From: a virus
Length of the DNA stretch: 64,000 nt
IMG/VR virus record: IMGVR_UViG_3300032893_000735
Location: 41,826 to 105,825 of that record
Strand: one strand, 5' to 3'
In this document: positions 1,423-58,989 of the stretch, piece after piece
Layout: each line of letters starts with the position of its first letter
Position numbering within the stretch: position 1 is the first letter of the stretch
Made by a program: the position numbers and the translations under genes
The notes under the pieces: model-generated
The model's input: only the letters and a program-made list of their open reading frames with translations
Database searches by the model: none
What the model was told of the DNA's origin: nothing

Positions 1423-4128
1423 CTACTGGAAGCAGCGCACATTGTACGTTTTTGCTGTAGGCGTGGCGCTTGTTCCGCCGTAATTCCAAACGAGCACTGC
1501 CACTGTGTTTGTGCCGTTTCCATAAGCCTGAACGACGAATGGATAGCCAGGGCCGGCGGATCCATCTGTGGCGGTCGCAACACAATTCATGCCGGACGTT
1601 GCTCCAGTCACTGTGACAGCCGCGCTGGTATTGCTACCCGATGGAACGCTCGATCCGCCGATGCTTGAGCTGGTCCCCGTAAGAGGGGCGATGTAGTTAT
1701 TCACGGCCACCCACGAGGATCCGTTGTAAATCCATCCGTAGGTTGTTCCCGCGCTCAAAGCGTCGCGAACAAAGTCGCCCTGTTGGTATCCGGTTCCCGA
1801 ACTCGGAATAGATTGCCTAGTCTCAGTGCTGGAGAAAAAGACGCCTGTTCCTCCGCTCACGGTTTGCGCATAGGTACGACCGGATATTGGATCAAAAATC
1901 GAGGACCCATGCGGAGGATAATTTGGCGATGACATGCTGAGCGTAATCGGGTTGGAGTAGCTGAAATTCGGAACCTTAACGCTAAAGAACGGCGAGGATG
2001 TGGAGAAAACAACATACGGGGTCAAAGATGAAGGGCTTCCCGTATAGCTAATATCATCACCATTGAATCGAAGGCCGCTCCCTGCGTTGTCTCCACTTGC
2101 TCCAAGAAAATATGTTCCATAAACCATCGTCGGCGTCGTTTGTGTGTCCGAAATTACGTTGTTCTCTGCTACCGAACCAGACCATGCTGTCACGGTGCTG
2201 ATCGTAATTCCAGACTGCCAAAGGGAAAAACAAAAGCTGGACGCGCTTCCGTTTCGCTGGCCGGGATTATGAATATGGTTCCCCGAGATATCCAAATCAG
2301 TGACCGTCGAGAGTGGCTGAATCGTGATGCCTGAACACAGTGGGCTTTCGATGGTGTTTCCGATAATAGACACGTTCGCCAGCGGGGTCGCATTCGATCC
2401 CGACAGAGCGATGCCCGCAGAAAAGCTATTGGTCGCCAGCGTGTCTGCGACGAATCGAATGTTGTTGTTCTCGATGTGGACATTCGTCAAACCGTAGGTG
2501 CTTGCCGGAAAGAGAGCAACTCCCGATTCGTCATTGGAAACCGACCAGGGATTGGCACCTCGGTTCACGCTGATGATGTTTCCGGTTATGTTCAACCCGT
2601 CATAACTCCCGTCCGTAGCCCAGATCGAAACTCCTCGATTCACATTCGAGCAGGTGTTTCCGATCACATTGAGGTCATGAACGACGGATTCATTTGCACT
2701 CGTGGCAACGCATGCCCTGTAGTTTTGGATAACATTGCCGCTGACGATCTTCGAATCCTGGTGCACCTCGATTGCGGTTCGCACCCCAATTCCCGCGGCT
2801 TGAAACGTGTTTCCCTCCACGATCCCGCCTGTCCCCGTCAGATAAATCTCCGAGGAGTCATGGTCGTAGGTTCCACCGATCCCCATGTTGGACCAATGAT
2901 TGTTGATGATCGAACAGTTATTGCACAAGTTGAGCGAAACCGTCTGAACGTCGTTCCCATTGATGAACTTTACGTTTTGAACCGTGACATTATGCGCCGT
3001 CCCGCCATTTATCTGAAAGGCGATGTGCTCATTTGCGCCGATTGGGTTGCTGTTCACTGCGTTGTTCGCGGCGTTCCCATCGATGGTCAGGTTTTCGATG
3101 GTCACGTTTGCGGGCGAACCGCTGAAATCGAACAACGCCCGATAGTTGCCGAGTGAATTTCCAATCTTGATTGTTCCGCTTCCGGTGAAGCCGATATTGT
3201 TGTAAGGGATCGTGTAAATATAGCCGCCCGGTGAGGGATTTGAGCCGATGACACACACAGTGGAATCGGGTATGTAAATTCGCACCGGGACAGTATAGGC
3301 TCCCCCCGCCGTGATCGCTGCCCCAATCGCCGCGCGGTCGTCCGTTGAGCCGTCGCACTTCGCTCCATAAGCCGCGTTGCGAATGTCGATTACCGGCGTC
3401 ACGGCAGAGATCGCATTCGCAGCCGCGACGGTACTAAAGTTGGCAGGTCCAGGAGTTCCCGTCTGCCCGATGCTGGAGGGGTTAATCGCGTTTCCATCTA
3501 CGACGGCGGTAGCCGCGCCTTGAGCATTATTCTGCCCAGTCCCGCCTAAAGGAATCGAAATAGGGTAAGACGGGGCGGTTGAAGAATTGGCGCAAACATT
3601 CGGAATGACCTGGGACCCTTGCCCAGGCGCGGATATAGTCTCAGTTACACAATAGTTCAGAGGGATATAGTACCCGTAGTTCCCGTTCGAGTCAGTTGTC
3701 ACTGAGCTAGAGGCGATAGGAACAGACAAAGCTGGGTCAGAATAAATAGTCGCCCCAGACCCCGTACCCGTAACCGTAACCCTAACCGTAGCATAAGGAG
3801 CCACCTGAGCGGTGATAGTATTCGTCCCGCGCATCAGGACTTGGTTAGTCCGATGGTAACCTCCTGTCGCTTGCTGGGCCAGTCCGAAAAATGGACAAAG
3901 TAAAATAAGTAGTAGTAAAAGTTTCTTCACAATCCCTCTGTCTAGTTCCGGAGTTACTTGTTCTGTGGACAAATCTCGGAGGATAATCTCCGCCAGTCTC
4001 GCTTCGTTCTCATGTTCAGCAGCTATTGCTTTGTACCCATTGTGTCGAGCCATCCCAGCTTCCCGTATTGATTTCTGGCGATGGCCCGAAACGAACAACC
4101 TGACTCGCTCCAAAACTTCGAACGTCAT
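1423..4128 (-). CDS. Tailspike/depolymerase-like right-handed beta-helix protein (pectate-lyase-3-like); probable start GTG 3930 with signal-peptide-like N-terminus
   Basis: YGAKCDGSTDDRAAIGAAI motif followed by repeated IxGNxI beta-helix turns; GAGGG RBS before GTG at 3930. Confidence 0.8.
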   Translation of the reverse strand: MTFEVLERVRLFVSGHRQKSIREAGMARHNGYKAIAAEHENEARLAEIILRDLSTEQVTPELDRGIVKKLLLLLILLCPFFGLAQQATGGYHRTNQVLMRGTNTITAQVAPYATVRVTVTGTGSGATIYSDPALSVPIASSSVTTDSNGNYGYYIPLNYCVTETISAPGQGSQVIPNVCANSSTAPSYPISIPLGGTGQNNAQGAATAVVDGNAINPSSIGQTGTPGPANFSTVAAANAISAVTPVIDIRNAAYGAKCDGSTDDRAAIGAAITAGGAYTVPVRIYIPDSTVCVIGSNPSPGGYIYTIPYNNIGFTGSGTIKIGNSLGNYRALFDFSGSPANVTIENLTIDGNAANNAVNSNPIGANEHIAFQINGGTAHNVTVQNVKFINGNDVQTVSLNLCNNCSIINNHWSNMGIGGTYDHDSSEIYLTGTGGIVEGNTFQAAGIGVRTAIEVHQDSKIVSGNVIQNYRACVATSANESVVHDLNVIGNTCSNVNRGVSIWATDGSYDGLNITGNIISVNRGANPWSVSNDESGVALFPASTYGLTNVHIENNNIRFVADTLATNSFSAGIALSGSNATPLANVSIIGNTIESPLCSGITIQPLSTVTDLDISGNHIHNPGQRNGSASSFCFSLWQSGITISTVTAWSGSVAENNVISDTQTTPTMVYGTYFLGASGDNAGSGLRFNGDDISYTGSPSSLTPYVVFSTSSPFFSVKVPNFSYSNPITLSMSSPNYPPHGSSIFDPISGRTYAQTVSGGTGVFFSSTETRQSIPSSGTGYQQGDFVRDALSAGTTYGWIYNGSSWVAVNNYIAPLTGTSSSIGGSSVPSGSNTSAAVTVTGATSGMNCVATATDGSAGPGYPFVVQAYGNGTNTVAVLVWNYGGTSATPTAKTYNVRCFQ

Positions 4129-9534: not shown

Positions 9535-9642
9535 TTATTGATTCCTTTATAGTTGTGGGGTGATTTGTCTGGGGCCTAGAATCAGCCCCACGTTGCGCAG
9601 GCCCGAACCGGGTCTCGATTAGTGTCCAGAAAACGGACAAGA

Positions 9643-11695: not shown

Positions 11696-11722
11696 ACTTG
11701 TTGTCCATTATCTGGACGAAAC

Positions 11723-14594: not shown

Positions 14595-15052
14595 GTTCGC
14601 GCCTTGAATAATTCCGATTCCCACTGCCTACGTCTGGTCAGTCCATCAACCGGGGCCAGAACTCCCTTAACCCGAGACTTGTTATATTTCAGGATCTCAG
14701 AGGGAACAGCATCGTACTTCCCGTCATTAAGTCCAGTTTCGGACACTAGGGTTTTAAGGGTTCCGCAACCTAGATTGTAACAGAAGCTGGACAGCGCGTC
14801 GAACTGGTTCTGGTTCAGAGGGGTTTTAATGAAAGCTACAATATATTTTTCTGAGCGATTCTTCAAGTCCTCCGCAAAGTCGGACATGGCTTTGTCCATA
14901 GTCTCGGGAACCTTCTCATTGTCCAGCAGCGGACCCTTGTGCATCAAGTGCCCGACGCCTTCCGTGGCATTCCCTGACAGGTCATTATATGGAACAAGTT
15001 TGACGCCTTCAAATCCGGCGATCTTCTTGACAGCTTCTGGGGAGGTGTTCAT
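14591..15052 (-). CDS. Endolysin, GH24 phage lysozyme
   Basis: FEG..LVPYND..G..T.G.GH; LNQNQFDALSSFCYNLG; GLTRRRQWE. Confidence 0.92.
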   Translation of the reverse strand: MNTSPEAVKKIAGFEGVKLVPYNDLSGNATEGVGHLMHKGPLLDNEKVPETMDKAMSDFAEDLKNRSEKYIVAFIKTPLNQNQFDALSSFCYNLGCGTLKTLVSETGLNDGKYDAVPSEILKYNKSRVKGVLAPVDGLTRRRQWESELFKART

Positions 15053-15597
15053 AGGGGCCAGTGATAAACCTGGGGGTCAGTTTGTCTAGCAAATTTTCGC
15101 AAAAGATGGATAGGTACTTTATCTGCATCGGGGCGGAAGTCAATTATCTTGTAAGCACCCTTCCACAGATTGCACCTGACGCACAGAGGCTGAATGTTAT
15201 AGATCTGATTACTTCCTCCTAAAAAAAGAGAAAGGATGTGGTCTGGGACAAGACGATACTCGGATGATCCGCACCTCAGACATTCGTGATTATATTTTTC
15301 TTTAAGGGATTCCCATTCTTCGGGGAGAAATTTACCGTCAGCCTCTGCTTCTCTTTGAAGCCTGTGACGTTTCTTCCTCGCAGCGTAACTCTCTGTTCCG
15401 TCTTCGCTGTGTACTCTTCGAACTCTTTCTTTTCTGAAAGTCGAACGAGTCTCTCTAGGCTCTATTCTATCTGGGTCTTCGTCCCAGCGACTACTCCTAC
15501 ACCCAGCACATCTGACTGGAATCGAATAGGCAGACCATGCGTACCCACATAGGTTGCACTCACATTCATACATTGTTACTATGATTTTTTCAATCAT
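15049..15597 (-). CDS. HNH endonuclease
   Basis: CLRCG...DHILSL..GG.N...NIQPLCVRCN. Confidence 0.85.
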   Translation of the reverse strand: MIEKIIVTMYECECNLCGYAWSAYSIPVRCAGCRSSRWDEDPDRIEPRETRSTFRKERVRRVHSEDGTESYAARKKRHRLQREAEADGKFLPEEWESLKEKYNHECLRCGSSEYRLVPDHILSLFLGGSNQIYNIQPLCVRCNLWKGAYKIIDFRPDADKVPIHLLRKFARQTDPQVYHWPL

Positions 15598-15620
15598 TCG
15601 TTTCCTCTTCCGAACAGTAA

Positions 15621-15968
15621 CTACTGCTTCGGCGGTTTACAGATATAGCAAGTGCAGGTAGCAGAATGTTTAGGTCTTCCAAGTTTTAAGGCCATCTGCG
15701 CCAAAATAGATTCAGCTACAGAAGATCCAGGTGGCTTTGGTTTCTCTGTTTGAGTCTCGTTCTTCAAAACTTCTACACAGGAGAATTGGTCTAACTCCGA
15801 AGAGGAAAGTATTCGACTAACTTCTTGTTCTATCGGTACTGTTTTAGAATCCCTAGAATTCCAGTCTCGATGCTTCCCTTTTCCAGCACAACGCTTAGGA
15901 ATGCTTTCGGATAGCCAAGTATGCCCGCACCAGCAAATACATTCGTTTACTTCTTTTCGTCTTATCAT
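15621..15968 (-). CDS. Hypothetical Cys-rich protein
   Basis: Start MIRRKEVNECICWCG resembles the N-terminal zinc finger of the downstream HNH. Confidence 0.55.
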   Translation of the reverse strand: MIRRKEVNECICWCGHTWLSESIPKRCAGKGKHRDWNSRDSKTVPIEQEVSRILSSSELDQFSCVEVLKNETQTEKPKPPGSSVAESILAQMALKLGRPKHSATCTCYICKPPKQ

Positions 15969-16433
15969 CTGGTTCCATAGTACCAAGTTATTTGTCGTCC
16001 CATAGAACCCGATCTTTATCTTTTGGTTCCATAGTACCAAAACTTTTAAGGGAGGGTCGGGGTCGCTAGGTGAAGTCTCAGTCCTACGGCACAACGCGGG
16101 GGTCAGGCCCCCGGTGGGTGGGCCGCGTTTCGTAGGGTCCCCCGCAAGTCGCACATATCAAACGACTTAGCGCCACCGTAGACAAGTCTCTTGGAGAATC
16201 TCCGCCGGACCGATACTGCATCTATTGCCACACTGTAGTCACAGCTTACCTGTAACCTATTGATTCTAAAGGGGCGATGCAAAACTAATGTTATCGGTCG
16301 ATGGGTTTGGCCGATTCGGTGGCCGATGCCCGGTGAAAACTGTATGTTGATTCTAAACGACTTAGGCCATGTAACCCCGCCGCTGTGTCCTGTTCTATGG
16401 CCGATAGCCTAAGGTAAACGTCTCAGTACTGAG

Positions 16434-16637
16434 TCATTTAGATCCTAATACAGACGTGCTACTTGCCTTGGACACGTCTTTGCCTCTACCCTTGCGCTTT
16501 GCTCTAGTCTTTGGCTTAAGTCTTTTAAAGCCTTGCAGTTGCCTAGTCGCATCCAAGACTTGTTTAATGCTGGCCTTGGGGTCCTGGATAATACGGATTA
16601 GGGCTAGCTCTGCTATTTGAGATTGAGTCTTGGGCAT
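16434..16637 (-). CDS. Small basic hypothetical protein
   Basis: MPKTQSQ... with a very basic C-terminus. Confidence 0.45.
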   Translation of the reverse strand: MPKTQSQIAELALIRIIQDPKASIKQVLDATRQLQGFKRLKPKTRAKRKGRGKDVSKASSTSVLGSK

Positions 16638-16851
16638 TAGGTAAGCGATACTACGTAAGCGTATGGGTTGGTACGGGCCCGTGTGATCCATTGCGAATCT
16701 AGCAATAATTGACCGCGACTGAGGATAGCGCTTGCTGTGTGCGGGCCCGTCTATAGTGTATAGAGTGATTCGGGGCGCGAAAACGTGCATTCCGTCCGTA
16801 AAATGGATTTTCGCAATGTTTTTCGGCCTTCATTATCAATCGTTTAGGGTA

Positions 16852-16910
16852 GTTTTCCACATTTTCCACAGACAGGGGAGATTGACACAAATTCGGGATA
16901 GTGGGAATCT
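16852..16910 (+). promoter_or_regulatory. Early promoter 1 with two TTTTCCACA boxes
   Basis: GTTTTCCACATTTTCCACA...TTGACA-17-(TGg)GAATCT. Confidence 0.55.
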
Positions 16911-16939
16911 AGGAATGTCAACGCAACAAAGGAGACGAG

Positions 16940-17431
16940 ATGGCACAGCAACCAAATTGGAAGAGCATCGGCACGGTCGGAGATGTTAACCCGTTGGACT
17001 ATGACGGCGGATACGTATATGAGGATACGACTGGCGTCTATCCTGCCGAATTGGAATATGTCCGGAATGTATCGGGCACAGAAGACGAAAACGGACCGTG
17101 GGAAGTCTATCGCTGGCCATTGGACCGCTACGAAATGGTCGACGCGGGCGGTGATACGCTGCTAGTGCCGTTTGGGTTTGGCTCTCGTTCAGATCTTCCT
17201 CATCCGCTGGCCAATTACGACGCGTGGTTTAATGACGACATTTCGCAAGTAGCATCCTATGTTGGATCCAACGTTGCGGAGATGCGTGCTTCGCTGTGCT
17301 CCGACAATCCGATGGAGCGGGCCTGGGTATATTTGGACCTTGCGACCTGCCACGGTTTCGAGAATTTCGACTCTTACCCTCTTGACTACTCGGACCGCGA
17401 AGAACTGGAGAAGCGGTACGCAACGTTATAG
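16940..17431 (+). CDS. Acidic hypothetical early protein
   Basis: AAGGAG RBS; first gene of the right arm. Confidence 0.8.
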   Translation: MAQQPNWKSIGTVGDVNPLDYDGGYVYEDTTGVYPAELEYVRNVSGTEDENGPWEVYRWPLDRYEMVDAGGDTLLVPFGFGSRSDLPHPLANYDAWFNDDISQVASYVGSNVAEMRASLCSDNPMERAWVYLDLATCHGFENFDSYPLDYSDREELEKRYATL

Positions 17432-17690
17432 AATCCGTCCAGATAATGGACAACTTACAGCGTAACCCATCCGCTATATGATGGGCGGGGAGTTGAGACA
17501 ATGCCTGATTTTTCTATCGGATGTTTGCTGGTTATTCTCGGCGTAGTGTTGTGTTTAGTGGCGCAGTTTCTCGCCGAATGGATCAATGATTAGCGTCCAT
17601 TTTTCAGACAACACCCTAGGGTAAAATCGCCAGTACTGCGCTGTTTTGCCCTACTGATCTGTACTCACGGCGCAATGGAGGAGCTAGAAA

Positions 17691-17894
17691 ATGAATTCCT
17701 ATGTGGTAATCTGCGGAAACATTGGAATGGTGTATTCCGGCGGAGTGTATCAATCCGCATTGGACGCGTTCACAGTCTACAAAAACAAGTCTATTCGGGG
17801 CGAGGGGCGCGCAAGCGGCGAAAGTGTTACCATGTTCCGGAATGGCGAAGTAATCAAGGAATTCATCGGAAGCACGGACGAAAACGAAGACTAA
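17691..17894 (+). CDS. Hypothetical early protein
   Basis: GGAGGAG RBS. Confidence 0.75.
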   Translation: MNSYVVICGNIGMVYSGGVYQSALDAFTVYKNKSIRGEGRASGESVTMFRNGEVIKEFIGSTDENED

Positions 17895-17896
17895 TC

Positions 17897-17955
17897 GCAG
17901 AGTGGCCGTCCGGAAAATGGACGGTTAATGCGGCGGTCCCGTCACAAGCCGGGAC
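17897..17955 (+). ncRNA. Twister ribozyme (circularly permuted, P1 closed as a hairpin)
   Basis: GCAGAGTG-[P1 hairpin]-TAATGCGGC-g-GTCCCG-TCACAAGC-CGGGAC; loop CAC can pair with GTG (pseudoknot). Confidence 0.8.
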
Positions 17956-17997
17956 AATCCAAACCGTATTCCGTGAAACTCACGGCGAAAGGGAAAC

Positions 17998-18516
17998 ATG
18001 TACGTCCCGAAGAATCTCAAGCTATGGACATTGCCGGATTCATACTTCGGCGAGCGCTGGACGGATTATTACGTGGTAATCGGTGCTCACCGGGACAGCG
18101 ACACAATTTCTCGGTGCAACTTCGATTGCATCCTTGCCGACTTGGAAAAACTGGAATCTGAAACGTGCAAGGAATGGGACAATGGGACGGATGACGAATC
18201 CGCCTTGCAGCACGTCACAGAGAATCATTGGGCCGTTGGATGGGTCGAATGGATCGGAATTCACAAGAATGCGCCCGATGAATTGTTGCGGCGAGCCGAT
18301 GAAATAATTGGCGAGCTGGAAGATTATCCGGTGTACAACGATGACAAGCTGTCAGAATTCGAAGATGAACAGGCTTGTGAAGCTTGGAAGTCTTACAGCT
18401 TGCGGGACCGAATCGAACTATGTGCGGAGTATGGAGTCTCGATTTTCGCCGCGCGGCGCGACTATCCGCCGTATGACGATCAAGGCGGAATTCAGCAAAC
18501 CTTACTAGGCTACTAA
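17998..18516 (+). CDS. Acidic hypothetical early protein
   Basis: AAGGG RBS; HWAVGWVEW motif. Confidence 0.8.
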   Translation: MYVPKNLKLWTLPDSYFGERWTDYYVVIGAHRDSDTISRCNFDCILADLEKLESETCKEWDNGTDDESALQHVTENHWAVGWVEWIGIHKNAPDELLRRADEIIGELEDYPVYNDDKLSEFEDEQACEAWKSYSLRDRIELCAEYGVSIFAARRDYPPYDDQGGIQQTLLGY

Positions 18517-18956
18517 TCCCATTTTCCGGACAAAACAATGAAACCAAATAATTGGATCAATCCTCGGGACGATTACGCGATCTGTAGAGCAAAACAGGTC
18601 GTCGGGTACCGGACCGGCTCCGCCCTGCAATCACACATTAACACTTGTCACGGCGGGCAAGTTTCCGATACTTGCCCCGCGTGCAAAGAGATTCAGCGCA
18701 AGATGGAGGCAGCAAAGTGACCATTCAGCAAGCCGCATGGCAAAAAAGAAGCGACGTTGTCGATGTAGACTGGAAGGAATTGTGGGAGCGGTACGACTAC
18801 CCGCATGCTACGATTCTCGGAGGCTGCCAGAACGTCTCGCACCGCACGGCGCAACCGTTCTGGAGCACACTCAAACGGGCGGCGGTTTTGACCGTGCTGT
18901 TTACGGCAGTGTTCGCCATTTTCACCGCAATTGTGTTTTAGTCCATTTTCTGGAAA

Positions 18957-19005
18957 GTTTTCCACAATTTTCAGGCTTGACACGGAAAACAATAACAACT
19001 AATCT
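18957..19005 (+). promoter_or_regulatory. Early promoter 2
   Basis: GTTTTCCACA...TTGACA-17-TAATCT, preceded by palindrome copy 18941. Confidence 0.7.
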
Positions 19006-19026
19006 TGAATCATTGGAGGGCAAGAC

Positions 19027-19341
19027 ATGGTCCTCGACCCGCGTTACAAAGCAATGGAGAACCCTACTATCCTACTCATGCACGCTATTGGATGGCAGGG
19101 CGGAACGGTTCACCAAGTGGCGGAACATACAGGCTTGCCCGTGCCCGATATTCTTTCCTTACACAAGCATGAGCCGTATTCCGGCTTGAATTCTTCGGCG
19201 TGCTCCGGGTGGACCAGTGTAAGAACGTGTTCTCTCGAATGGAACCAGGAACGGATCTTCCCGAAGTACCACGGCAACATTGACTTTTGGTCCGGGGTTT
19301 TACAGGCTCAGTTCAGCATCGAGGTAATGGGCCTATCCTAA
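19027..19341 (+). CDS. Hypothetical protein
   Basis: GGAGG RBS after the promoter. Confidence 0.7.
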   Translation: MVLDPRYKAMENPTILLMHAIGWQGGTVHQVAEHTGLPVPDILSLHKHEPYSGLNSSACSGWTSVRTCSLEWNQERIFPKYHGNIDFWSGVLQAQFSIEVMGLS

Positions 19342-19535
19342 CGGCACAATCCGAAAAATGGACAACTCACGGGGGGAAGGTGTACCATGAAAACAATTTT
19401 CTGGGATGTGTTTCATAATGGGCGCAAGATTGACAGCGTACCATATTCGGCGGACTGTGATAAGGAATATGTGCGCCGCTCACTGATTGAACACGACGGG
19501 TATAACCCCGACATCCTTGTCCGCAAGGCGCGATA

Positions 19536-19871
19536 ATGCGAATGTGGATGGTCGAACCCCGGCTAATGTGTCGCAAGCATCTGTTAGGTGAGCACGTAGA
19601 GCTGCACATGCTAGTCGGGAGCCTTCAGCGCGGAAAGTCAATAGCAGGTTTCTTGTCTAGGGGCCTGCTAGAACCTCAACACATACGAGAGCGTCACGCG
19701 ATTTTAGTTGCGGAAATGGAACGGCGGGGATACTCTCATAACAGTGCACTCGCGGAATACGAAACCGATATAACCGGCAAGGTGGACAGACAAAAGTCAT
19801 TGCAGGATCTTTCGGGAAGGTGTATCGAGTGTGCGGAACGGATCAAAGAACAAGGAGGCGCGGAAAAATGA
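19536..19871 (+). CDS. denV: Pyrimidine-dimer DNA glycosylase (T4 endonuclease V family)
   Basis: MRMW....LMCRKHLLGEHVELH...RH..LVAEMERRGY.H. Confidence 0.8.
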   Translation: MRMWMVEPRLMCRKHLLGEHVELHMLVGSLQRGKSIAGFLSRGLLEPQHIRERHAILVAEMERRGYSHNSALAEYETDITGKVDRQKSLQDLSGRCIECAERIKEQGGAEK

Positions 19872-20062
19872 TTTTCAGGACAAGGAAAGACGCGAAGTCG
19901 TGGGCGAAAGCGAATCTCCGAGGAAAATACTATCGCCTTGTGACATCTTACGTAAACGCAGAGCGCGGCTATGAGACGAAAATCGCTCTCCAGTCCCGCC
20001 CATTTAGCCGAATGAATGATCCGAAAGTTTACGCCTAACCGCTTAGCCGGAGCGTTATCCGG

Positions 20063-20118
20063 CCCCTCTACCGGGTTTAACGGTCCCGGCACTGATGAGC
20101 GCGAAAGGCGCGAAAGGG
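20063..20118 (+). ncRNA. Hammerhead ribozyme, type III
   Basis: CCC-TC, stem I (CCGGG/CCCGG), CTGATGA, GCGC-GAAAG-GCGC, GAAA, GGG. Confidence 0.85.
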
Positions 20119-20133
20119 AGAATCCAAAAAAAA

Positions 20134-20961
20134 ATGGACAGAACGACGAATCGAGTGGACGTACCGAAACGGGTTTTAGATCGCGTCTACGCATCGAAAC
20201 CTGAAGACTGGAAACAGCACGAAAACGGCGGCGGATGGGTGCATAAAACCGCTTATGTTGAAAAATCGGCTTATTTGCATCCTACGTCGATTGTGTCCGG
20301 CGATGCTCGGGTGTACGGCAATGCTCGGGTGTACGGCGATGCTTGGGTGTCCGGCAATGCTTGGGTGTACGGCAATGCTCGGGTGTACGGCGATGCTTGG
20401 GTGTCCGGCAATGCTCGGGTGTCCGGCAATGCTTGGGTGTCCGGCGATGCTCGGGTGTCCGGCGATGCTCGGGTGTCCGGCGATGCTTGGGTGTCCGGCA
20501 ATGCTCGGGTGTCCGGCAATGCTCAGGTGTCCGGCGATGCTTGGGTGTCCGGCAATGCTCGGGTGTACGGCAATGCTCAGGTGTCCGGCAATGCTCAGGT
20601 GTCCGGCGATGCTTGGGTGTCCGGCAATGCTCGGGTGTACGGCAATGCTCAGGTGTCCGGCGATGCTCGGGTGTACGGCAATGCTCGGGTGTCCGGCGAT
20701 GCTCGGGTGTCCGGCGATGCTTGGGTATTTTCGCCCCTCTACATCCAAGGCACAATGCACTCGCTCACCTTGTGCAGTTTTACGCAAATTGCTGTAGGGT
20801 GCCACGTCCATGATATAACCTATTGGATGAAGCATTACAAGGCAATAGGGCGGACCGAGGGGTACACGAAAGAACAGGTAAGCGAGTACAAACGACATTT
20901 GGATTATTTGGCCGCAGAGTCTGAGCGGCTACTGGCTGCAAAAATCGAAACGAAGGAATAA
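20134..20961 (+). CDS. Hexapeptide-repeat (V[SY]G[ND]A[RWQ]) left-handed beta-helix protein
   Basis: About 24 tandem hexapeptides; likely start ATG 20134 after GGGAG. Confidence 0.8.
   Translation: MDRTTNRVDVPKRVLDRVYASKPEDWKQHENGGGWVHKTAYVEKSAYLHPTSIVSGDARVYGNARVYGDAWVSGNAWVYGNARVYGDAWVSGNARVSGNAWVSGDARVSGDARVSGDAWVSGNARVSGNAQVSGDAWVSGNARVYGNAQVSGNAQVSGDAWVSGNARVYGNAQVSGDARVYGNARVSGDARVSGDAWVFSPLYIQGTMHSLTLCSFTQIAVGCHVHDITYWMKHYKAIGRTEGYTKEQVSEYKRHLDYLAAESERLLAAKIETKE
20293..20727 (+). repeat. 18-bp coding tandem repeat, about 24 units
   Basis: GTGT[CA]CGGC[AG]ATGCT[CT][GA]G units. Confidence 0.95.
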
Positions 20962-20989
20962 CCAACCGCCCGCCGGAGCGTATCCGGTA

Positions 20990-21041
20990 GGCTCTACAGG
21001 CAAGCCGTCACGGGGCAGAGCTGAGCATCTACTAATTGCCT
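20990..21041 (+). ncRNA. Minimal HDV-like ribozyme
   Basis: P1 GGCTCT/AGAGCT (G.U at +1), P2 AGGCAA/TTGCCT, P3 GCC/GGC, 7-nt L3, P1.1 TC/GA, J4/2 CTAA. Confidence 0.8.
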
Positions 21042-21052
21042 AAAGGAGAACC

Positions 21053-21580
21053 ATGAGTAAGTACACGGAACAGGCGGAAAAGTTTCTCAAGGACCACGGC
21101 CTGACATTCACGGCGCAGCTTATCGGGTCTGATTGCCCGAAGTTTTGCGAAGATGCAGCCAAAATGCGGGAAATGGACAACCACGAATTCCTATCAGAAG
21201 TAAACGAAGCGGGCGAAAGTTTTGCAGAATCCGCCCAAGAAATGTTAGACGCACTCCGCGCGGCGCAAGAATCCGAGGACAATGAGGCTGAGGATGAAGC
21301 GCGGCGGACAATTGACGCGCACCCGCTTTCGGTCCAGGTTCGTGGCGGATGGCATACTCCGGGTTGCGGCGGCAGAGTGGCGGAGGAATTCGAGATTCTG
21401 CTAGGCACCGGTGGCCCCGCATCCAGGATCATCGGGGAACTGAACGAATACGCCGAACCCGATTCGGCGCGGTTTGAATATCAGGATTGGTTTAAGCCGT
21501 GGACTCCAGCGCTCAACTTGTCTGAAGATCAGAATGAAGCGATCCTAGAATTTGCCCGCCAGTTCTATTACGGCGAATAA
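21053..21580 (+). CDS. Acidic hypothetical early protein
   Basis: AAGGAG RBS; FEILLGTGGPA..I.G motif. Confidence 0.8.
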   Translation: MSKYTEQAEKFLKDHGLTFTAQLIGSDCPKFCEDAAKMREMDNHEFLSEVNEAGESFAESAQEMLDALRAAQESEDNEAEDEARRTIDAHPLSVQVRGGWHTPGCGGRVAEEFEILLGTGGPASRIIGELNEYAEPDSARFEYQDWFKPWTPALNLSEDQNEAILEFARQFYYGE

Positions 21581-21778
21581 CTCACGGCGCAACCGGCCCG
21601 CCCATCGGCCTAAAGGTGGGGCAGAGAATCAGGAAAGGGGAGTAAAAAAAAAGATGGCATACCCAACTCTTGAGCAATTTGAGCAAGCCCGCCGCGAACT
21701 AAGGCGTGCGGATAACACCGAACTGGAACAGAAAAAGCCAAAGAGCAACGAGTAACAGTCCAGAAAATGGACGACAGA

Positions 21779-21826
21779 GTTTTCCACAGCTTTCGGCTTG
21801 ACAAAAACAACCAAACGAAGTAGTTT
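21779..21826 (+). promoter_or_regulatory. Early promoter 3
   Basis: GTTTTCCACA...TTGACA-17-TAGTTT, preceded by palindrome copy 21758. Confidence 0.7.
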
Positions 21827-22077
21827 TGATTGAAAAGGAGAAACTATGTCACCAGCAACGAAAGGCCAGATCACCAAGGCGCGGAAGATCGAGGACAGCC
21901 GCGCACGTTTTAACGCCGTCCGGGCGGTGTTTGCCAAGTCGATGCCCGCCGAACAAGCAAAGCACGCGGCGCGAAAGGCACTCGTAACGTCCAAGTAATG
22001 GACACGGCAGACTTGCTCTGCCCAGATAGCTAACCCCGATTATCTGGAGAGGGCAAGAACCGAAATAGGGAGAATTT

Positions 22078-22269
22078 GTGATTGAAACCACAATCAAGTG
22101 TGACGTGTGCGGGGCTGTCAAGGGCCAAACCAACCATTGGTTCGACTTGTGGCGGAGCGACGAAGGTTGTATCATCGTGGCCCCATCAAAACCTGACGTA
22201 ACCGCCAGTCAAGTATGCGGGAAGAAATGCCTGCATGTTCTGATCGACAAATTACTGGAGGGGAAATGA
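22078..22269 (+). CDS. Small Cys-rich hypothetical protein
   Basis: GGGAG RBS; CDVC and CGKKC. Confidence 0.65.
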   Translation: MIETTIKCDVCGAVKGQTNHWFDLWRSDEGCIIVAPSKPDVTASQVCGKKCLHVLIDKLLEGK

Positions 22270-22829
22270 ACATCCTAGTCGAACCCCAAGGTGAGGGCGA
22301 CGTAGTGGCAGGAATGGTTAACGGTGTTATCCTGTCTGTCCCGTTTTGGGCAATTGTACTAGTCGTGATGTGGCTGAAGGGGTGCTTGTGAGGAAACCAA
22401 TTGCAACTTTGGAGATCACTGCGGGGTCCCTCCTTCGCGGAGAAATTCGCAGAGAACTTGACAAAATTGTCTATCGACACCCTGAGATTTCTTACCGTGA
22501 GTTTAAGGGATTTCTTTCTAGTGATTTCATCATACGTGGCCCTTTGGCGCATGTAGGCAGGATCAAGAGGTGGCTGGAGGAGGTAGGCAATTGACCGACC
22601 TCACGGCGAGATCAACCCGGCTACGATTCACAACCAGCTCCGAGGTTCGGGAGGCGGGCAAGCATCGGAGAGTAGTCTGCGAAGCGCGACCACAATACCT
22701 GATTGTCAAGGCATCCGGCCTGCATTCGTGTTATAGTATCCCTTGGGATGCTATCTGGAGCCTAGCAGTTAAACAAGATGTCGCGGCTAAGAAGGCCGCG
22801 AAGAAGGCGAAGAAGGAACCGTCCAAATA

Positions 22830-23993
22830 ATGGACGAGAAAGCAGGATCAATGAAAGGCTTCAAGGGTTTTGACAAGGATCTGAAGTGCCGAGGTTTCCA
22901 ATACGAACTTGGCAAAACATTCGCCCACGAAGGAACCGTAGACCTTTGTTCGCCCGGCTTCCATTTCTGCGAAAACCCGCTTGACGTGCTCTCTTATTAC
23001 GGGGTGGCAAACGGAAATCGTTTCGCGGAAGTAGAGGTCGATGGAGTAACTGACCAGAAGGAAAACGATTCAAAACGGGTCTGTTCTTCTCTTGCCATCG
23101 GTGCAGAAATTTCCCTCAAGAATCTAGTCGATCATTCGATTAAATTCATCTTCAACAAAACCACAAACCCCACCAGTGGCGACTACGCGCACTCGGCCAC
23201 CAGCGGCGACTACGCGCACTCGGCCACCAGCGGCAACAACGCGCACTCGGCCACCAGTGGCGACTGCGCGCCCTCGGCCACCAGTGGCGACTGCGCGCGC
23301 TCGGCCACCAGCGGCAACAACGCGCATTCGGCCACCAGCGGCGACTACGCGCACTCGGCCACCAGCGGCGTCTACGCGCACTCGGCCACCAGCGGCAACT
23401 ACGCGCACTCGGCCACCAGCGGCAACTACGCGCACTCGGCCACCAGCGGCGACTACGCGCACTCGGCCACCAGCGGCAACAACGCGCACTCGGCCACCAG
23501 CGGCGTCTACGCGCACTCGGCCACCAGCGGCATCTACGCGCGCTCGGCCACCAGCGGCAACTACGCGCACTCGGCCACCAGCGGCGACTACGCGCACTCG
23601 GCCACCAGCGGCAACAACGCGCATTCGGCCACCAGCGGCGACTACGCGCACTCGGCCACCAGCGGCAACAACGCGCACTCGGCCACCAGCGGCATCTACG
23701 CGCGCTCGGCCACCAGCGGCAACTACGCGCACTCGGCCACCAGCGGCGACTACGCGCATTCGGCCACCAGCGGCGACTACGCGCGCTCGTCTGCTATGGG
23801 GGGAAATTCAATAGCCGCCGCTATTGGTAGAAACGGCGCAGCAAAGGCATCCGTAGGAAACTGGATCGTTCTGGCGGAATACAAGGACAACGGAGAGATT
23901 GTATCCGTGAAAATGGCAAAAGTGGACGGCGAGAAGATCAAGGCCGACACTTTTTACCAACTCAAAAACGGGGAGTTTACGGAAGCTGAATGA
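22830..23993 (+). CDS. DUF7666-like protein with 9-residue (SATSGxYAH) repeats
   Basis: KGFDKDLKCRGFQYE...GFHFCENPLDV N-terminus; VDGEKIKADTFY C-terminus. Confidence 0.85.
   Translation: MDEKAGSMKGFKGFDKDLKCRGFQYELGKTFAHEGTVDLCSPGFHFCENPLDVLSYYGVANGNRFAEVEVDGVTDQKENDSKRVCSSLAIGAEISLKNLVDHSIKFIFNKTTNPTSGDYAHSATSGDYAHSATSGNNAHSATSGDCAPSATSGDCARSATSGNNAHSATSGDYAHSATSGVYAHSATSGNYAHSATSGNYAHSATSGDYAHSATSGNNAHSATSGVYAHSATSGIYARSATSGNYAHSATSGDYAHSATSGNNAHSATSGDYAHSATSGNNAHSATSGIYARSATSGNYAHSATSGDYAHSATSGDYARSSAMGGNSIAAAIGRNGAAKASVGNWIVLAEYKDNGEIVSVKMAKVDGEKIKADTFYQLKNGEFTEAE
23171..23789 (+). repeat. 27-bp coding tandem repeat, about 23 units
   Basis: CCACCAGCGGCxxCTACGCGCACTCGG units. Confidence 0.95.
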
Positions 23994-45527: not shown

Positions 45528-47372
45528 ATGGACAAAGCACTTACAGTTGGGTCGCTATTCGCGGGTATAGGCGGCTTCGACCTTGGATTTGAGAGAGCGG
45601 GATTTGAGGTAAATTGGTGCGTCGAGATCGATCCGTTCTGCCGAAAGGTCTTAGCCAAGCATTTTCCGAACGCCAAACGGTATGAAGACGTTAGGGAAGT
45701 TGGAAAACACAATTTGGAACCAGTGGACGTGATTTGTGCTGGGTTCCCTTGCTTTCCGTCAGGGAGCCTAGTTCTTTCTTCTAAGGGGTATCAACCTATT
45801 GAAAACATACGGGTAGGCGATCTTGTGCTTACCCATAAAGGTAGGTGGAGAAAGGTCACAGGAACCGGTGGTAGAAATAATGCGCCACTTGTTACTCTTA
45901 AAGGACAAGGACATTGCGGATTAGAGGCTACTCCCGACCATCCATTTTGGAGCAGAAAAACTAAAGGATATTATCCTTCTGTCAACGGTAAAAGGAAGAA
46001 TTTACGTGTATTTGACGGAGAAGCCTCGTGGACTGATGCGAAGGATATGTCGGGTTTGAGATGGGCTTGTCCTACGTCGGTGGAACCTCTTCCCGTTCCT
46101 GTTATAGAGCCTCTGAACAACCGTTGCAAGACTCCCCCGGTTCAGGATGAAAAATTTTGGTGGATTGTCGGGCGGTGGTTAGGAGATGGTTGGTGTCAGC
46201 AGACTCAGAGGCCGGATCGCCCTGAAGGGGAATTGTGGGGTAAATTTGTAATATGCTGCGACCATGTTGAAGCTGATGAGTTGGAGTTGAAAATATCAGA
46301 AGTATTTGGTATTTCTCCTAGAAAAGAAGTATGCCGAACTGCTACCAAATTTTACATAGGAGATAAGTCAACTTGTACGTGGTTTGAATCTAACTTCGGA
46401 AAAGGAGCCTCCGAAAAAACATTACCGGCTTGGGTGTACGGGATGCCTGAAAGATTTCGAACTGCCCTTCTTGAAGGTTACAAGAGTGCCGATGGGTCTA
46501 CAAATAAGCCTGGAAATCATCGTTTTACGACGGTAAGCAAGTCTCTTGCAACCTCGATTCGTTTATTATCTGAAACTTTGGGTTTTAGTAGTTCTTTGCA
46601 CCACTATGAAATTCCCCCGACGACGGTTATTGAGGGGCGAGTTGTAAACCAAAAACCTCAGTATCAAGTAGTTATGAATCAAAATCCTCGTAGCAACGGG
46701 ATGCGAGATGAAAAACATAACTGGTATAAGGTACGAAGTTCTAAATCCTGTGGAAAATTTACTGATGTATTTAATATTGAGGTAGAAGAAGACAATACCT
46801 ACGTGGTAGAAAACATAGTAGTACACAACTGTCAAGATATTTCCGTAGCTGGAAAAGGTGTTGGAATTTCAGGAGAACGAAGTGGACTCTTCTTTGAAGC
46901 GGCAAGGATCATTAGCGAGATACGACCGCGATACGCAGTCTTGGAAAATGTACACGCCCTCCTTGTTCGGGGAATGGACCGAGTTCTCGGGACGCTTTCC
47001 GAAATCGGGTATGATGCGGAGTGGCATACTATTCGAGCTTCGGAATTCGGGTTGCCGCAAGAGAGAGAGAGAATCTGGATTGTTGCCTACCCTTCCGAAG
47101 AGCGAAACGAGAGATTCTTCGAAAGCCTCTATTCTAGCGAAGTTGGACAGAGGTGGTCGGGTGGCGAGACGGATTTGCAGTCGATCATCGATCTTGCGCT
47201 CGTCGGATCAAATAGTTTCCCTAAACCCTTGCTTTGCGGAGTGGATGACCGGCCTACCGGTTGGGTGGACAGAGTTGGATCTTGTGGAAACGCAGTAGTA
47301 CCGCAGATTCCAGAGTGGATAGCAAAACGGATACTTGAAGTTGAAGGCGTCCAGAAAATGGACAGGAGCTAA
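45528..47372 (+). CDS. dcm: C5 cytosine DNA methyltransferase with intein
   Basis: FAGIGG, GFP|CQD split by the intein, ENV, QERER, GNAVVP. Confidence 0.93.
   Translation: MDKALTVGSLFAGIGGFDLGFERAGFEVNWCVEIDPFCRKVLAKHFPNAKRYEDVREVGKHNLEPVDVICAGFPCFPSGSLVLSSKGYQPIENIRVGDLVLTHKGRWRKVTGTGGRNNAPLVTLKGQGHCGLEATPDHPFWSRKTKGYYPSVNGKRKNLRVFDGEASWTDAKDMSGLRWACPTSVEPLPVPVIEPLNNRCKTPPVQDEKFWWIVGRWLGDGWCQQTQRPDRPEGELWGKFVICCDHVEADELELKISEVFGISPRKEVCRTATKFYIGDKSTCTWFESNFGKGASEKTLPAWVYGMPERFRTALLEGYKSADGSTNKPGNHRFTTVSKSLATSIRLLSETLGFSSSLHHYEIPPTTVIEGRVVNQKPQYQVVMNQNPRSNGMRDEKHNWYKVRSSKSCGKFTDVFNIEVEEDNTYVVENIVVHNCQDISVAGKGVGISGERSGLFFEAARIISEIRPRYAVLENVHALLVRGMDRVLGTLSEIGYDAEWHTIRASEFGLPQERERIWIVAYPSEERNERFFESLYSSEVGQRWSGGETDLQSIIDLALVGSNSFPKPLLCGVDDRPTGWVDRVGSCGNAVVPQIPEWIAKRILEVEGVQKMDRS
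45750..46829 (+). mobile_element. Intein with LAGLIDADG endonuclease (360 aa)
   Basis: CFPSG...TPDHPF...VVHN|C; GRWLGDG and EGYKSADG motifs; lower GC than flanks. Confidence 0.93.
46858..47298 (+). CDS. Nested out-of-frame methyltransferase small (beta) subunit carrying motif IX
   Basis: LLPT...LNPCFAEWMTGLPVGWT in the +1 frame; the main frame lacks a recognisable motif IX. Confidence 0.7.
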   Translation: MLEFQENEVDSSLKRQGSLARYDRDTQSWKMYTPSLFGEWTEFSGRFPKSGMMRSGILFELRNSGCRKRERESGLLPTLPKSETRDSSKASILAKLDRGGRVARRICSRSSILRSSDQIVSLNPCFAEWMTGLPVGWTELDLVETQ

Positions 47373-47373
47373 A

Positions 47374-47814
47374 ATGGAAACTTCCACAAAATGGGATCTA
47401 CGATTTTTGAATCTAGCCAAAGAGGTTGCCTCATGGAGTAAAGATCCTCCGACTCAGGTGGGTGCGATTATCACCAGAGGAAAGAAGGTAGTCTCTTTGG
47501 GTTTCAACGGGTTTCCTTCTGGGATTGTGGATGATTCTAGGTTGGATGACCGGCCGACGCGACTCGGAATGACGATCCACGCTGAGCCCAACGCAATTCT
47601 CCAAGCCAAACAAGACCTGTCTGGATGTACGATTTACGTTTGGCCGTTTATGCCGTGTTCCGACTGCGCTCTTTTGGTGGTACAATCTGGAATCAAGCGA
47701 GTTGTTGCCCCTAGATCCGACAATCCGAGGTGGGCAGACAGCTTCACGCTGTCCGAAGAAATTTTCAACGAAGCAGGTGTATTTGTCCAGAAAATGGACA
47801 AGGAGATTTTATGA
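47374..47814 (+). CDS. dcd: dCMP deaminase
   Basis: SKDP.TQVGA, GFNGFP, HAE.NA, PCSDC. Confidence 0.9.
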   Translation: METSTKWDLRFLNLAKEVASWSKDPPTQVGAIITRGKKVVSLGFNGFPSGIVDDSRLDDRPTRLGMTIHAEPNAILQAKQDLSGCTIYVWPFMPCSDCALLVVQSGIKRVVAPRSDNPRWADSFTLSEEIFNEAGVFVQKMDKEIL

Positions 47815-48797
47815 AACACATTCCGTTTCCAGATATTCAGCAATTCCGAAACACCGTCAAGACCGTCCGAGAACGGGCGGAGTACAGTGGGGTTCCGCTC
47901 CCTACTCTGACATTTGTTGGGTCTGTTGAACTGCACGGAACAAACGCTTCTGTTGTCTTTCCAGAAAATGGACAGATTGTCGTGCAGAGTCGGACACGAA
48001 TCATTACCCCAGAGCACGATAACGCTGGGTTCGCTAAATGGGTTACAGAGAACGAGGAATGGTTCGTTACTCTTCGTCGTGTTTTGCGGGAAGAATTCAA
48101 ACTAGCAAACGGATTCGTTGTCTACGGAGAATGGTGCGGCCAAGGAATCCAGAAGGGTGTGGCTATTTCTCAGGTCTCCAAGAGATTTGTAGTATTTTCA
48201 ATCGCAGTTCTCAAAGGGGAAGATCGTGAATGGGTCCATCCTCTCTGCGTCAGGTCTTTGGTGTCCCCCATGTTTTACTGCATTTACGACTACCCGACTT
48301 GGACTTTGGATATTGATTTTAACAAGCCCGAAGAATCTCAAAACCGTCTGGTAGAATTGACTCAGGCGGTTGAGAATGAATGCCCAGTAGGGAAATCGTT
48401 TGGAGTTTCTGGAGTCGGTGAGGAGATTGTTTGGTGGCCGCTTCCCGCCCTTGACTTCAATACCAGAGATTTGGCTTTCAAGGTAAAAGGAGAAAAGCAC
48501 TCCGAGTCGAAAGTTAAGACTCTGGCGGCGGTTGATGTAGAAAAACTCAACTCCTTGAACGAACTTGTTGATACTATCTTGACAGAGCACCGTCTAGAAA
48601 AGAAAATCGAATCTCTTCTTGAGCAAGGAGGAAGTCTAGACATCAAGCAAACTGGCGCTTTTCTGAAGTTAGTCGGCCAGGATGTCTACAAGGAAGAAGC
48701 GGATACCATTTCCGAGGCAGGCTTCAAGGATAGCGAAGTCATGGGCGCGGTACAAAAGAAAGCAAAGAAATTCTGGATGGAAAAATTGTCCAGATAG
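47811..48797 (+). CDS. Rnl2-like RNA ligase (motif I Lys appears as Glu)
   Basis: ELHGTN, QSR, YGEWCG.GIQK, GEEIVW, FKVKGEKHS. Confidence 0.8.
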   Translation: MKHIPFPDIQQFRNTVKTVRERAEYSGVPLPTLTFVGSVELHGTNASVVFPENGQIVVQSRTRIITPEHDNAGFAKWVTENEEWFVTLRRVLREEFKLANGFVVYGEWCGQGIQKGVAISQVSKRFVVFSIAVLKGEDREWVHPLCVRSLVSPMFYCIYDYPTWTLDIDFNKPEESQNRLVELTQAVENECPVGKSFGVSGVGEEIVWWPLPALDFNTRDLAFKVKGEKHSESKVKTLAAVDVEKLNSLNELVDTILTEHRLEKKIESLLEQGGSLDIKQTGAFLKLVGQDVYKEEADTISEAGFKDSEVMGAVQKKAKKFWMEKLSR

Positions 48798-58537: not shown

Positions 58538-58989
58538 ACTGGTTCTGGAAGAAGAAGAAAGAAGAGCAAGATAAACCAGAGGATGAAATTGAATACTATG
58601 CTTGCTTTTCATGCGAAAACGGACACTGCCAAGATTACAAAATAGAAACGGACTACGTTCCACTTCTCAATAAGATTGAAGTTTGTGAGAAGTGCGGTGA
58701 GAGTTCGTTCCCATCTGTTTGTAAAGTAACAAAAACACATGTTCTACGTCTTGGTAGGTGTTGGGTTCCGAGGCGATCTGAAGGAACATTTGTCCGTTTT
58801 CTGGACAACGAAGATGAAGTAACCCTTTCAGAAGAATCAGTCACCTATCTCAAGAAGTTGTCCGGCCGAGAGTTTGCCGATGCTGATAAAGACTCTTCGG
58901 CATCCTACAAGAACGGACTCACAGACGGATGCACTATGACGGCTCAATACGTGTTGAGAGAACTGAAGGACGAGGAGACTAATGCCTAA
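58534..58989 (+). CDS. Hypothetical protein
   Basis: GGAGG RBS after a palindrome copy. Confidence 0.65.
   Translation: MNWFWKKKKEEQDKPEDEIEYYACFSCENGHCQDYKIETDYVPLLNKIEVCEKCGESSFPSVCKVTKTHVLRLGRCWVPRRSEGTFVRFLDNEDEVTLSEESVTYLKKLSGREFADADKDSSASYKNGLTDGCTMTAQYVLRELKDEETNA

Follow-up and report, generated by a model that had tools for sequence, protein, structure and literature searches.

A type-P5 twister ribozyme at a phage gene junction whose P1 tip matches a dispersed 15-bp box

Can the same few bases of a phage genome be both a helix of a self-cleaving RNA and a copy of a box that recurs at gene starts, and if so, are the two roles linked? This question is raised by a locus in the window (the whole 64,000-nt stretch of DNA analysed here), which makes up the right-hand 64 kb of the 105,825-bp virus record G000 (98% complete according to CheckV). 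The first-pass annotation had proposed that a permuted twister ribozyme lies at this locus, that its P1 stem contains a copy of a genome-wide palindrome, and that one sequence serves as both DNA operator and ribozyme helix. The ribozyme is located within a 103-nt spacer separating a 67-aa ORF and a 172-aa ORF, two small early genes of this uncultured phage, both on the + strand. The 67-aa ORF has no PHROG match, and no relatives of the 172-aa protein were obtained in the related-locus search. The features in and around the spacer are collected in Table 1.

The record carries a 22-gene tRNA cluster, an SU10-type portal with an intein, a DNA polymerase, a primase-helicase, a large terminase and an RNA ligase. 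The RNA ligase is encoded at window 47730-48797 (PHROG 548, E 5e-64), and it is co-encoded with the 22 tRNAs and with a ribozyme of a class whose products have 2',3'-cyclic phosphate and 5'-OH ends. An intein with a LAGLIDADG domain splits the C5 cytosine methylase, and the SU10-type portal contains Hint and LAGLIDADG domains (window 45528-47372; L022:15551-18697).

By the covariance model, the locus carries a type-P5 twister. In the Rfam cmscan, RF02684 (Twister-P5) matched window 17896-17953 on the + strand over the full model (1-58); the match scores 57.3 bits, well above the gathering threshold of 37.6 bits, and has a local E of 1e-11. P5 was the model retained within the twister clan, with P1 closed by the loop 17913-17917, and this is the sole RF02684 match in the whole 105.8-kb genome; the permuted twister claimed beforehand was thus borne out by the covariance-model check. 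In the same framework, no hammerhead or HDV-like ribozyme was found in window 15000-23000 at E up to 1, so that a neighbouring first-pass claim of three ribozyme classes has no backing from Rfam. The defining features of twisters, namely the helices, the T1 and T2 pseudoknots that link the internal loop with the P4 loop, and some ten strongly conserved nucleotides in L1 and L4 together with an A 3' of the scissile bond, have been reviewed (PMC5408937). Nearly all of the upper-case model consensus is matched here (GCAGAG, UAAUGC, GC, GUC and CAAGCC), the exception being one upper-case A after T1, which is G in the window and is variable among homologues. The core elements named in the first-pass annotation, GCAGAG, UAAUGCGGC and a P4 with the loop UCACAAGC, are all present, and the complementarity of GUG and CAC that it had read as a pseudoknot corresponds to T2.

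Table 1 Features in and around the ribozyme-containing spacer (positions in the window)
Feature	Position	Strand	Remarks
Junction block shared with L025	17590-17693	+	90% identity; degenerate antisense box 17594-17608
Upstream 67-aa ORF	17691-17894	+	stop TAA 17892-17894, 1 nt before the ribozyme
Type-P5 twister ribozyme	17896-17955	+	Rfam match to 17953; two extra P4 pairs extend to 17955
P2 5' strand CGCA	17896-17899	+	pairs with UGCG 17929-17932; 4 bp; invariant in 4 variants
Core GCAGAG	17897-17902	+	twister consensus element
Pseudoknot T2 strand GUG	17902-17904	+	pairs with CAC 17943-17945 in the P4 loop
P1 hairpin	17905-17925	+	8 pairs (17905-17912/17918-17925), loop GAAAA 17913-17917
Box copy GTCCGGAAAATGGAC forming the P1 tip	17908-17922	+	fits the family pattern without a mismatch
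Predicted scissile bond U^A	17926-17927	+	from alignment to the model consensus UAAUGC
Core UAAUGCGGC	17926-17934	+	twister consensus element
Pseudoknot T1 strand GC	17933-17934	+	pairs with GC 17948-17949; invariant
P4 hairpin	17936-17955	+	CCCG/CGGG core 17938-17941/17950-17953, loop UCACAAGC
Conserved downstream hairpin	17971-17985	+	6-bp stem, loop AAC; between ribozyme and ribosome site; common to the L025 and G004 cassettes
Downstream 172-aa ORF	17998-18516	+	ATG 17998; weak PHROG 3906 match; preceded by AGGGA ~17990-17994
Third junction block shared with L025	18514-18562	+	94% identity; box-like sequence disrupted in the window by a 1-nt insertion

Every helix is present, as are the two pseudoknots. 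P1 is closed by the pair G17912-U17918, and P4 is extended by U17937-A17954 and G17936-C17955. The minimum free energy of the ribozyme strand is -28.9 kcal/mol (z = -3.3). When both pseudoknots are written in, 95% of the helix cells are paired over four distinct variants, as compared with 30-38% in slid controls. Compensatory changes occur in P1, P4 and T2 of this four-variant alignment: three P1 pairs have changes on both sides, and T2 is 92% paired with one compensatory pair among the variants. In twisters the U-A scissile step is located beside P1 (PMC5408937), and here the unpaired UAA next to P1 bears the step U17926-A17927, A17927 being aligned with a consensus A. The cut formerly predicted at this position agrees with the alignment to the model, and we infer self-cleavage there. 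Twister cleavage leaves 2',3'-cyclic phosphate and 5'-OH ends (PMC5408937, PMC8782182).

The comparison with homologous cassettes leads to the same picture. The cassette of the window, consisting of the ribozyme and the hairpin at 17971-17985, has two homologues, one in L025 and one in G004. L025, a 1-kb metagenome contig, provides the closest one (94% identical over 107 nt). All six differences between them amount to two compensatory pairs, U-A to C-G in P1 and U17937-A17954 to C-G at the P4 base, and two loop positions; the single difference in the downstream hairpin sits in its loop. Since the differences are confined to compensatory pairs and loops, they are strong evidence of selection on RNA structure. 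The element is, by sequence and structure, a genuine type-P5 twister with its helices under selection. In the G004 phage (polymerase 48% identical), the downstream hairpin is likewise present, and the twister scores 48 bits.

The position of the ribozyme is also typical. The order of stop codon, twister, SD and ATG recurs in 18 other twisters on related and unrelated phage contigs. Phage twisters start 0-1 nt past the stop codon or overlap it, and they end 10-45 nt before the next ATG with the SD in between. In one metagenome contig, six Twister-P5 matches (44.6-58.5 bits) occupy consecutive junctions within 3.3 kb (L026:231-2803) and make up a full junction array, in which each twister directly follows a stop codon and ends 10-25 nt ahead of the next SD and ATG. 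Another viral contig, L017, has two twisters and an HDV-like ribozyme; the latter is an HDV-F-prausnitzii-type match at L017:11533-11601 with 48.4 bits (cut-off 44). Self-cleaving ribozymes between phage or prophage genes have been proposed to process polycistronic transcripts (PMC6765202), and the layout of the present twisters fits such a role. A twister of the same subfamily was found at L027:5045-5082 in a Verrucomicrobia subdivision 3 MAG, on a contig of 120 kb that may represent a prophage or a phage assigned to the wrong bin; this gives a weak hint at the host range of such phages.

The alignment of the window with L025 revealed three non-coding blocks that are 90-94% identical (17590-17693, 17892-17998 and 18514-18562), while the intervening genes are unrelated. 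Such conserved junction blocks around unrelated genes suggest, as far as the sequences tell, cassette shuffling in which junction modules act as linkers. Neither the conserved leader nor the third junction block had matches in exact scans of the viral collection.

We now turn to the box. Its family pattern is GTCC-R-G-N-W-AATGGAC (that is, GTCCRGNWAATGGAC), and its commonest form in G000 is GTCCAGAAAATGGAC. The latter occurs 45 times in the window at ≤2 mismatches, where 0.14 matches would be expected, and the G000 genome contains 21 perfect copies of it. The relatives G003, G030, G004 and G005 were located via the primase and polymerase. The numbers of matches to the family pattern at ≤1 mismatch are 68 in G000 (105.8 kb), 75 in G003, 53 in G030 and 19 in G004 (27.5 kb), which correspond to densities of 0.64-0.77 per kb; no copies were found in the more distant G005 (polymerase 40% identical). 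The flavour of the box differs among these genomes, being GTCC(G/A)G(A/G/T)TAATGGAC in G003 and G030, and GTCCAGTTAATGGAC in G004. The box abuts the SD or supplies the ATG in 24 of the 68 copies in G000 and in 10 of the 19 copies in G004, and other copies occur after terminators, between tRNA genes or inside ORFs. Before the SD, the sense orientation is seen in 14 copies and the antisense orientation in 5 in G000, while G004 has 6 antisense copies and no sense copy. The perfect G000 copies are sense-biased by about 19:2. The sequences flanking the copies lack conservation. The dispersed box is therefore real, with a clade distribution and an association with gene starts. As a literal string, it gave no relevant match in the literature searched.

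Several copies deserve separate mention. One at window 11703-11717 lies between tRNA-His and tRNA-Thr, and another at 9624-9638 lies just past the last tRNA of the cluster, which shows that the box is not tied solely to translation starts. A diverged direct repeat is present at both contig ends (G000:C1:75-330 and 105490-105745; the IMG/VR class of the record is linear), in which a terminator hairpin is followed by the box GTCCGAAAAATGGAC and, ~130 nt on, by GTCCGTAAAATGGAC; part of the repeat is ~90% identical. Several antisense two-mismatch 'copies' (window 3882-3896; G000:C1:21707-21721) are signal-peptide codons for CPFFGL and not independent boxes; the proteins concerned are two ~900-aa paralogues with a pectate-lyase-like domain.

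Two simple accounts of the box were rejected. One is that it is a core promoter. Some copies lie upstream of TTGACA, and most abut ribosome sites; the copies differ in orientation and in where they lie with respect to the SD, and none of the large ORFs was recognisable as a phage RNA polymerase, two large structural-module proteins being without annotation. A core promoter was accordingly set aside as the main model. The other is that the copies are relics of decayed twisters. The twister core is present on both flanks only at true ribozymes; because no other box is flanked by it, the boxes are not ribozyme relics.

How, then, is the box related to P1? The P1 tip GTCCGGAAAATGGAC agrees with GTCCAGAAAATGGAC at 14 of 15 positions and with GTCCRGNWAATGGAC at all 15. 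The number of mismatches to the family pattern is 0 in the P1 tip of the window, 1 in that of G004 (in the opposite orientation), 3 in that of L025, and 5-8 in 13 other twister tips of the same subfamily, which were retrieved through Rfam and by scanning viral, metagenome and genome collections for a pattern. The probability that a random hairpin tip (4-bp stem, 7-nt loop) matches at ≤1 mismatch in either orientation is ~2e-5. The tip of G004, GUCC-AUUAGUC-GGAC, is a reversed box carrying G004's own T at box position 8. Both embedded copies follow the flavour of their own genome (A in the window versus T in G004 at this position) and the orientation that their genome favours at SD-abutting sites. 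That P1 contains a copy of the genome-wide palindrome, as had been asserted, is thus upheld, and the G004 cassette with its own box flavour adds to it.

The other twister junctions of the clade were compared in the same way. In the box-bearing clade, 4 of the 5 twister junctions have a box or its remnant, 3 of them nested and 1 adjacent, whereas roughly one junction in five has a box genome-wide (a rough estimate). The adjacent case is the second twister of G030, where a perfect box lies 3 nt upstream of the ribozyme while the P1 tip is unrelated. Twister A of G003 and G030 has no box within or beside the ribozyme, and G005 has neither the box nor a box-like P1. The twisters of G003 and the window are in the same early region at different junctions, that is, without strict synteny. 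A 12-nt overlap between the G003 twister (P1 3' strand and core) and one G003 box variant was judged to be coincidental, as only 3 bases in it are free. The box thus recurs inside the ribozyme or next to it, and does so non-randomly. Since the cassettes of the window, L025 and G004 are homologous, a single ancestral event may lie behind the nesting instead of repeated selection.

L025 is particularly informative here. Its compensatory change in P1 hits box positions 2 and 14, by which the helix is kept and the box is spoiled, while T2/A14 (the bases at these two box positions) are retained in the other box copies of L025. Because the box identity was lost yet the helix was kept, the dual role is not obligatory. 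The integrity of the box inside P1 is dispensable; selection on it there is weaker than that on the helix and can lapse, as in L025. The proposal that one sequence is both operator and helix is borne out as regards the helix and the box copy. The word 'operator' found no support: no promoter-like site was found above chance near the ribozyme (sigma-70-like sites in 16200-22200 number 6, versus 4.8 in shuffles), and about a third of the copies are at translation starts and away from recognisable promoters.

The reading to which we lean, at a little better than an even chance, is that of a predicted-active type-P5 twister whose P1 tip hosts the gene-start box of the clade, with the helix and the box being probably independent of each other. 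P1 is phylogenetically conserved yet dispensable for twister catalysis (PMC5408937). As it is the one twister stem that catalysis can spare, the sequence of its tip is free; since the tip is the only cost-free lodging for a 15-bp signal in the ribozyme, the simplest account is that two junction signals have been packed into one place. As judged from the family membership, self-cleavage of the polycistronic RNA would fall between U17926 and A17927, giving an upstream product that ends in the P1 hairpin plus a U with a 2',3'-cyclic phosphate, and a downstream product that starts with the 5'-OH of A17927 and carries the P4 hairpin, the second conserved hairpin and the ribosome site. The box would most likely be bound by a sequence-specific and probably dimeric protein, the DNA level being favoured. 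At a junction filled with a ribozyme, the box would be placed either alongside it (as in G030) or nested in P1 (as in the window and G004), and the two signals would probably act independently, the helix in the RNA and the box on its own target.

The box may instead be an RNA signal, namely a 5-bp hairpin with a GNRA-like pentaloop that is bound or cut by a protein and flags the junctions at which the message is processed, stabilised or controlled in its translation; the twister would then do the same job autonomously, with P1 doubling as the box hairpin. The copies flush with the SD or containing the ATG speak for this, as do the loop pattern G-N-W-A-A with its free position 2 in two phages, the A/G variation at box position 5 opposite a fixed U, and the junction slot shared by the box and the twisters. 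An RNA-level role is kept alive by the link with translation starts and by the sense bias among the perfect G000 copies, a bias that is unexpected for a symmetric DNA site and thus runs counter to the DNA-site view. However, no compensated stem variants were found among the ~90 box copies per genome, and changes at position 1 break the pair. The antisense form, which has a different loop, occurs at the same kind of gene-start site, the P1 copies of the window and G004 are oppositely oriented, and copies also occur after terminators and in the interiors of ORFs. Moreover, the cleaved P1 hairpin would stay on the upstream fragment, and hence it could not act on the downstream ribosome site. These features do not match a protein-binding RNA hairpin, and we regard the RNA signal as unlikely, if the strongest of the rivals. 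What is expected of a duplex-DNA site is mostly seen: the sequence and not the pairing is conserved, and both orientations occur at equivalent places, P1 included, which makes us lean to a DNA-level site. In rough terms, a DNA site is the leading possibility, somewhat short of an even chance, an RNA signal is less probable and still substantial, and a functionless P1 copy comes last. At either level, we infer that the box is a protein-binding site. No box-binding protein was found. A wHTH protein at window 58982-60127 is an incidental DNA-binding candidate.

The two roles might also be coupled, in that the same 15 bases are DNA operator and RNA helix with linked functions: a box factor would, for example, govern the making or cutting of the read-through transcript, or bind the P1 RNA and tune its folding. 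A phage protein acting at ~70 gene starts would then also bind the ribozyme gene or its RNA, giving a natural protein-responsive or transcription-coupled twister, and the box and the ribozyme would be interchangeable or cooperating elements that co-evolve in flavour and orientation. The recurrence of nesting with genome-specific flavour and orientation agrees with this, and the A-to-G change at box position 5 of the window preserves the RNA pair as G-U. Yet the L025 cassette persists with a broken box, the box is outside the ribozyme in G030 and absent from twister A of G003, no regulator or promoter was identified, and, as P1 is unnecessary for catalysis (PMC5408937), binding there need not alter cleavage. 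Such coupling, both in its general form and as a protein-responsive twister, is therefore rather improbable. The opposite extreme is that the P1 copy has no function, having arisen by chance or by gene conversion between dispersed palindromes, and persists as P1 tolerates any paired sequence. Indeed, 13 of the 16 P1 tips are unrelated to the box, the tips are freely variable, and L025 drifted off the box by a compensatory change. The palindromic arms provide homology whichever way round they lie, and the flipped copy of G004 could have arisen in this way. The probability of pure chance per tip given above, the two tips at ≤1 mismatch that each show the flavour and favoured orientation of their own genome, and the excess of boxes or remnants at the clade's twister junctions all count against it, and we consider it the least probable of these explanations, a distinctly improbable one.

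What twister ribozymes do for bacteria and phages is not yet settled (PMC6765202). The present clade offers a natural experiment in this respect, in which the junction slot holds a ribozyme, a 15-bp box, both side by side, or a nested box, and in which L025 is a natural compensatory mutant that breaks the box and keeps the helix. Identification of the box binder would reveal whether phages combine protein-dependent and RNA-autonomous junction signals. It would also bear on whether a natural ribozyme stem can be a protein docking site, a function for which engineered twister switches have so far been the main examples. Should the nesting reflect compaction alone, the locus is still a clean case of two signals that overlap where a phage genome is tightly packed.

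The ribozyme itself is of a known family and a known kind of location; for the nested box, no earlier description was found in the literature searched. It belongs to the type-P5 class of Roth et al. 2014 (reviewed in PMC5408937 and PMC6765202), and it shares with the RF02684 twisters the permutation, the P2/P1/P4 arrangement, T1 and T2, the core nucleotides and the U-A step beside P1. It differs from them in that its P1 tip is a copy of a genome-wide 15-bp box and not an arbitrary hairpin, and its cleavage is predicted. Like the intergenic ribozymes of phages and prophages (PMC6765202), it is on the sense strand, with a stop codon immediately ahead of it and the next ribosome site a short way downstream, and related contigs have arrays of such ribozymes (six in L026). 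In contrast, G000 has a single ribozyme, and most of its other junctions carry the 15-bp box. Clustered hammerheads between phage or prophage genes were reportedly described by Perreault et al. in 2011. The PeSL regulatory cassettes of T4-type phages are said, after work of Arbiol et al. in 2010, to flank shuffled small early genes, and in a similar manner the conserved non-coding blocks common to the window and L025 (90-94%) flank unrelated small genes; one of the window blocks is, unlike those cassettes, a ribozyme cassette, and a role in recombination may be read from the pattern.

Several known systems resemble the box in part. The C1 repressor of phage P1 has more than a dozen 17-bp operators, and such dispersed phage operators resemble the box in having many conserved copies near gene starts without compensatory changes. 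The difference is that the box has ~70 copies, many of them at translation starts or in ORFs, with no recognisable promoter partner or regulator identified. Among protein-binding RNA hairpins are boxB of lambda and P22, with a 5-bp stem and a GNRA-like pentaloop, and the MS2 replicase operator, and the Cas6/Csy4 sites are likewise RNA hairpins recognised by proteins. The box has a 5-bp stem and a 5-nt loop G-N-W-A-A, and some copies hold the start codon, as in boxB- or MS2-like hairpins; it differs from them in the lack of covariation, the occurrence in both orientations and the far larger number of copies, so that the likeness is a resemblance only. Finally, engineered twister switches have ligand-binding modules grafted on their stems (PMC5052635). 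The locus of the window shares with them a foreign recognition module on a non-catalytic stem, and whereas those switches are artificial and carry aptamers, the insert of the window is natural and any ligand of it would be hypothetical.
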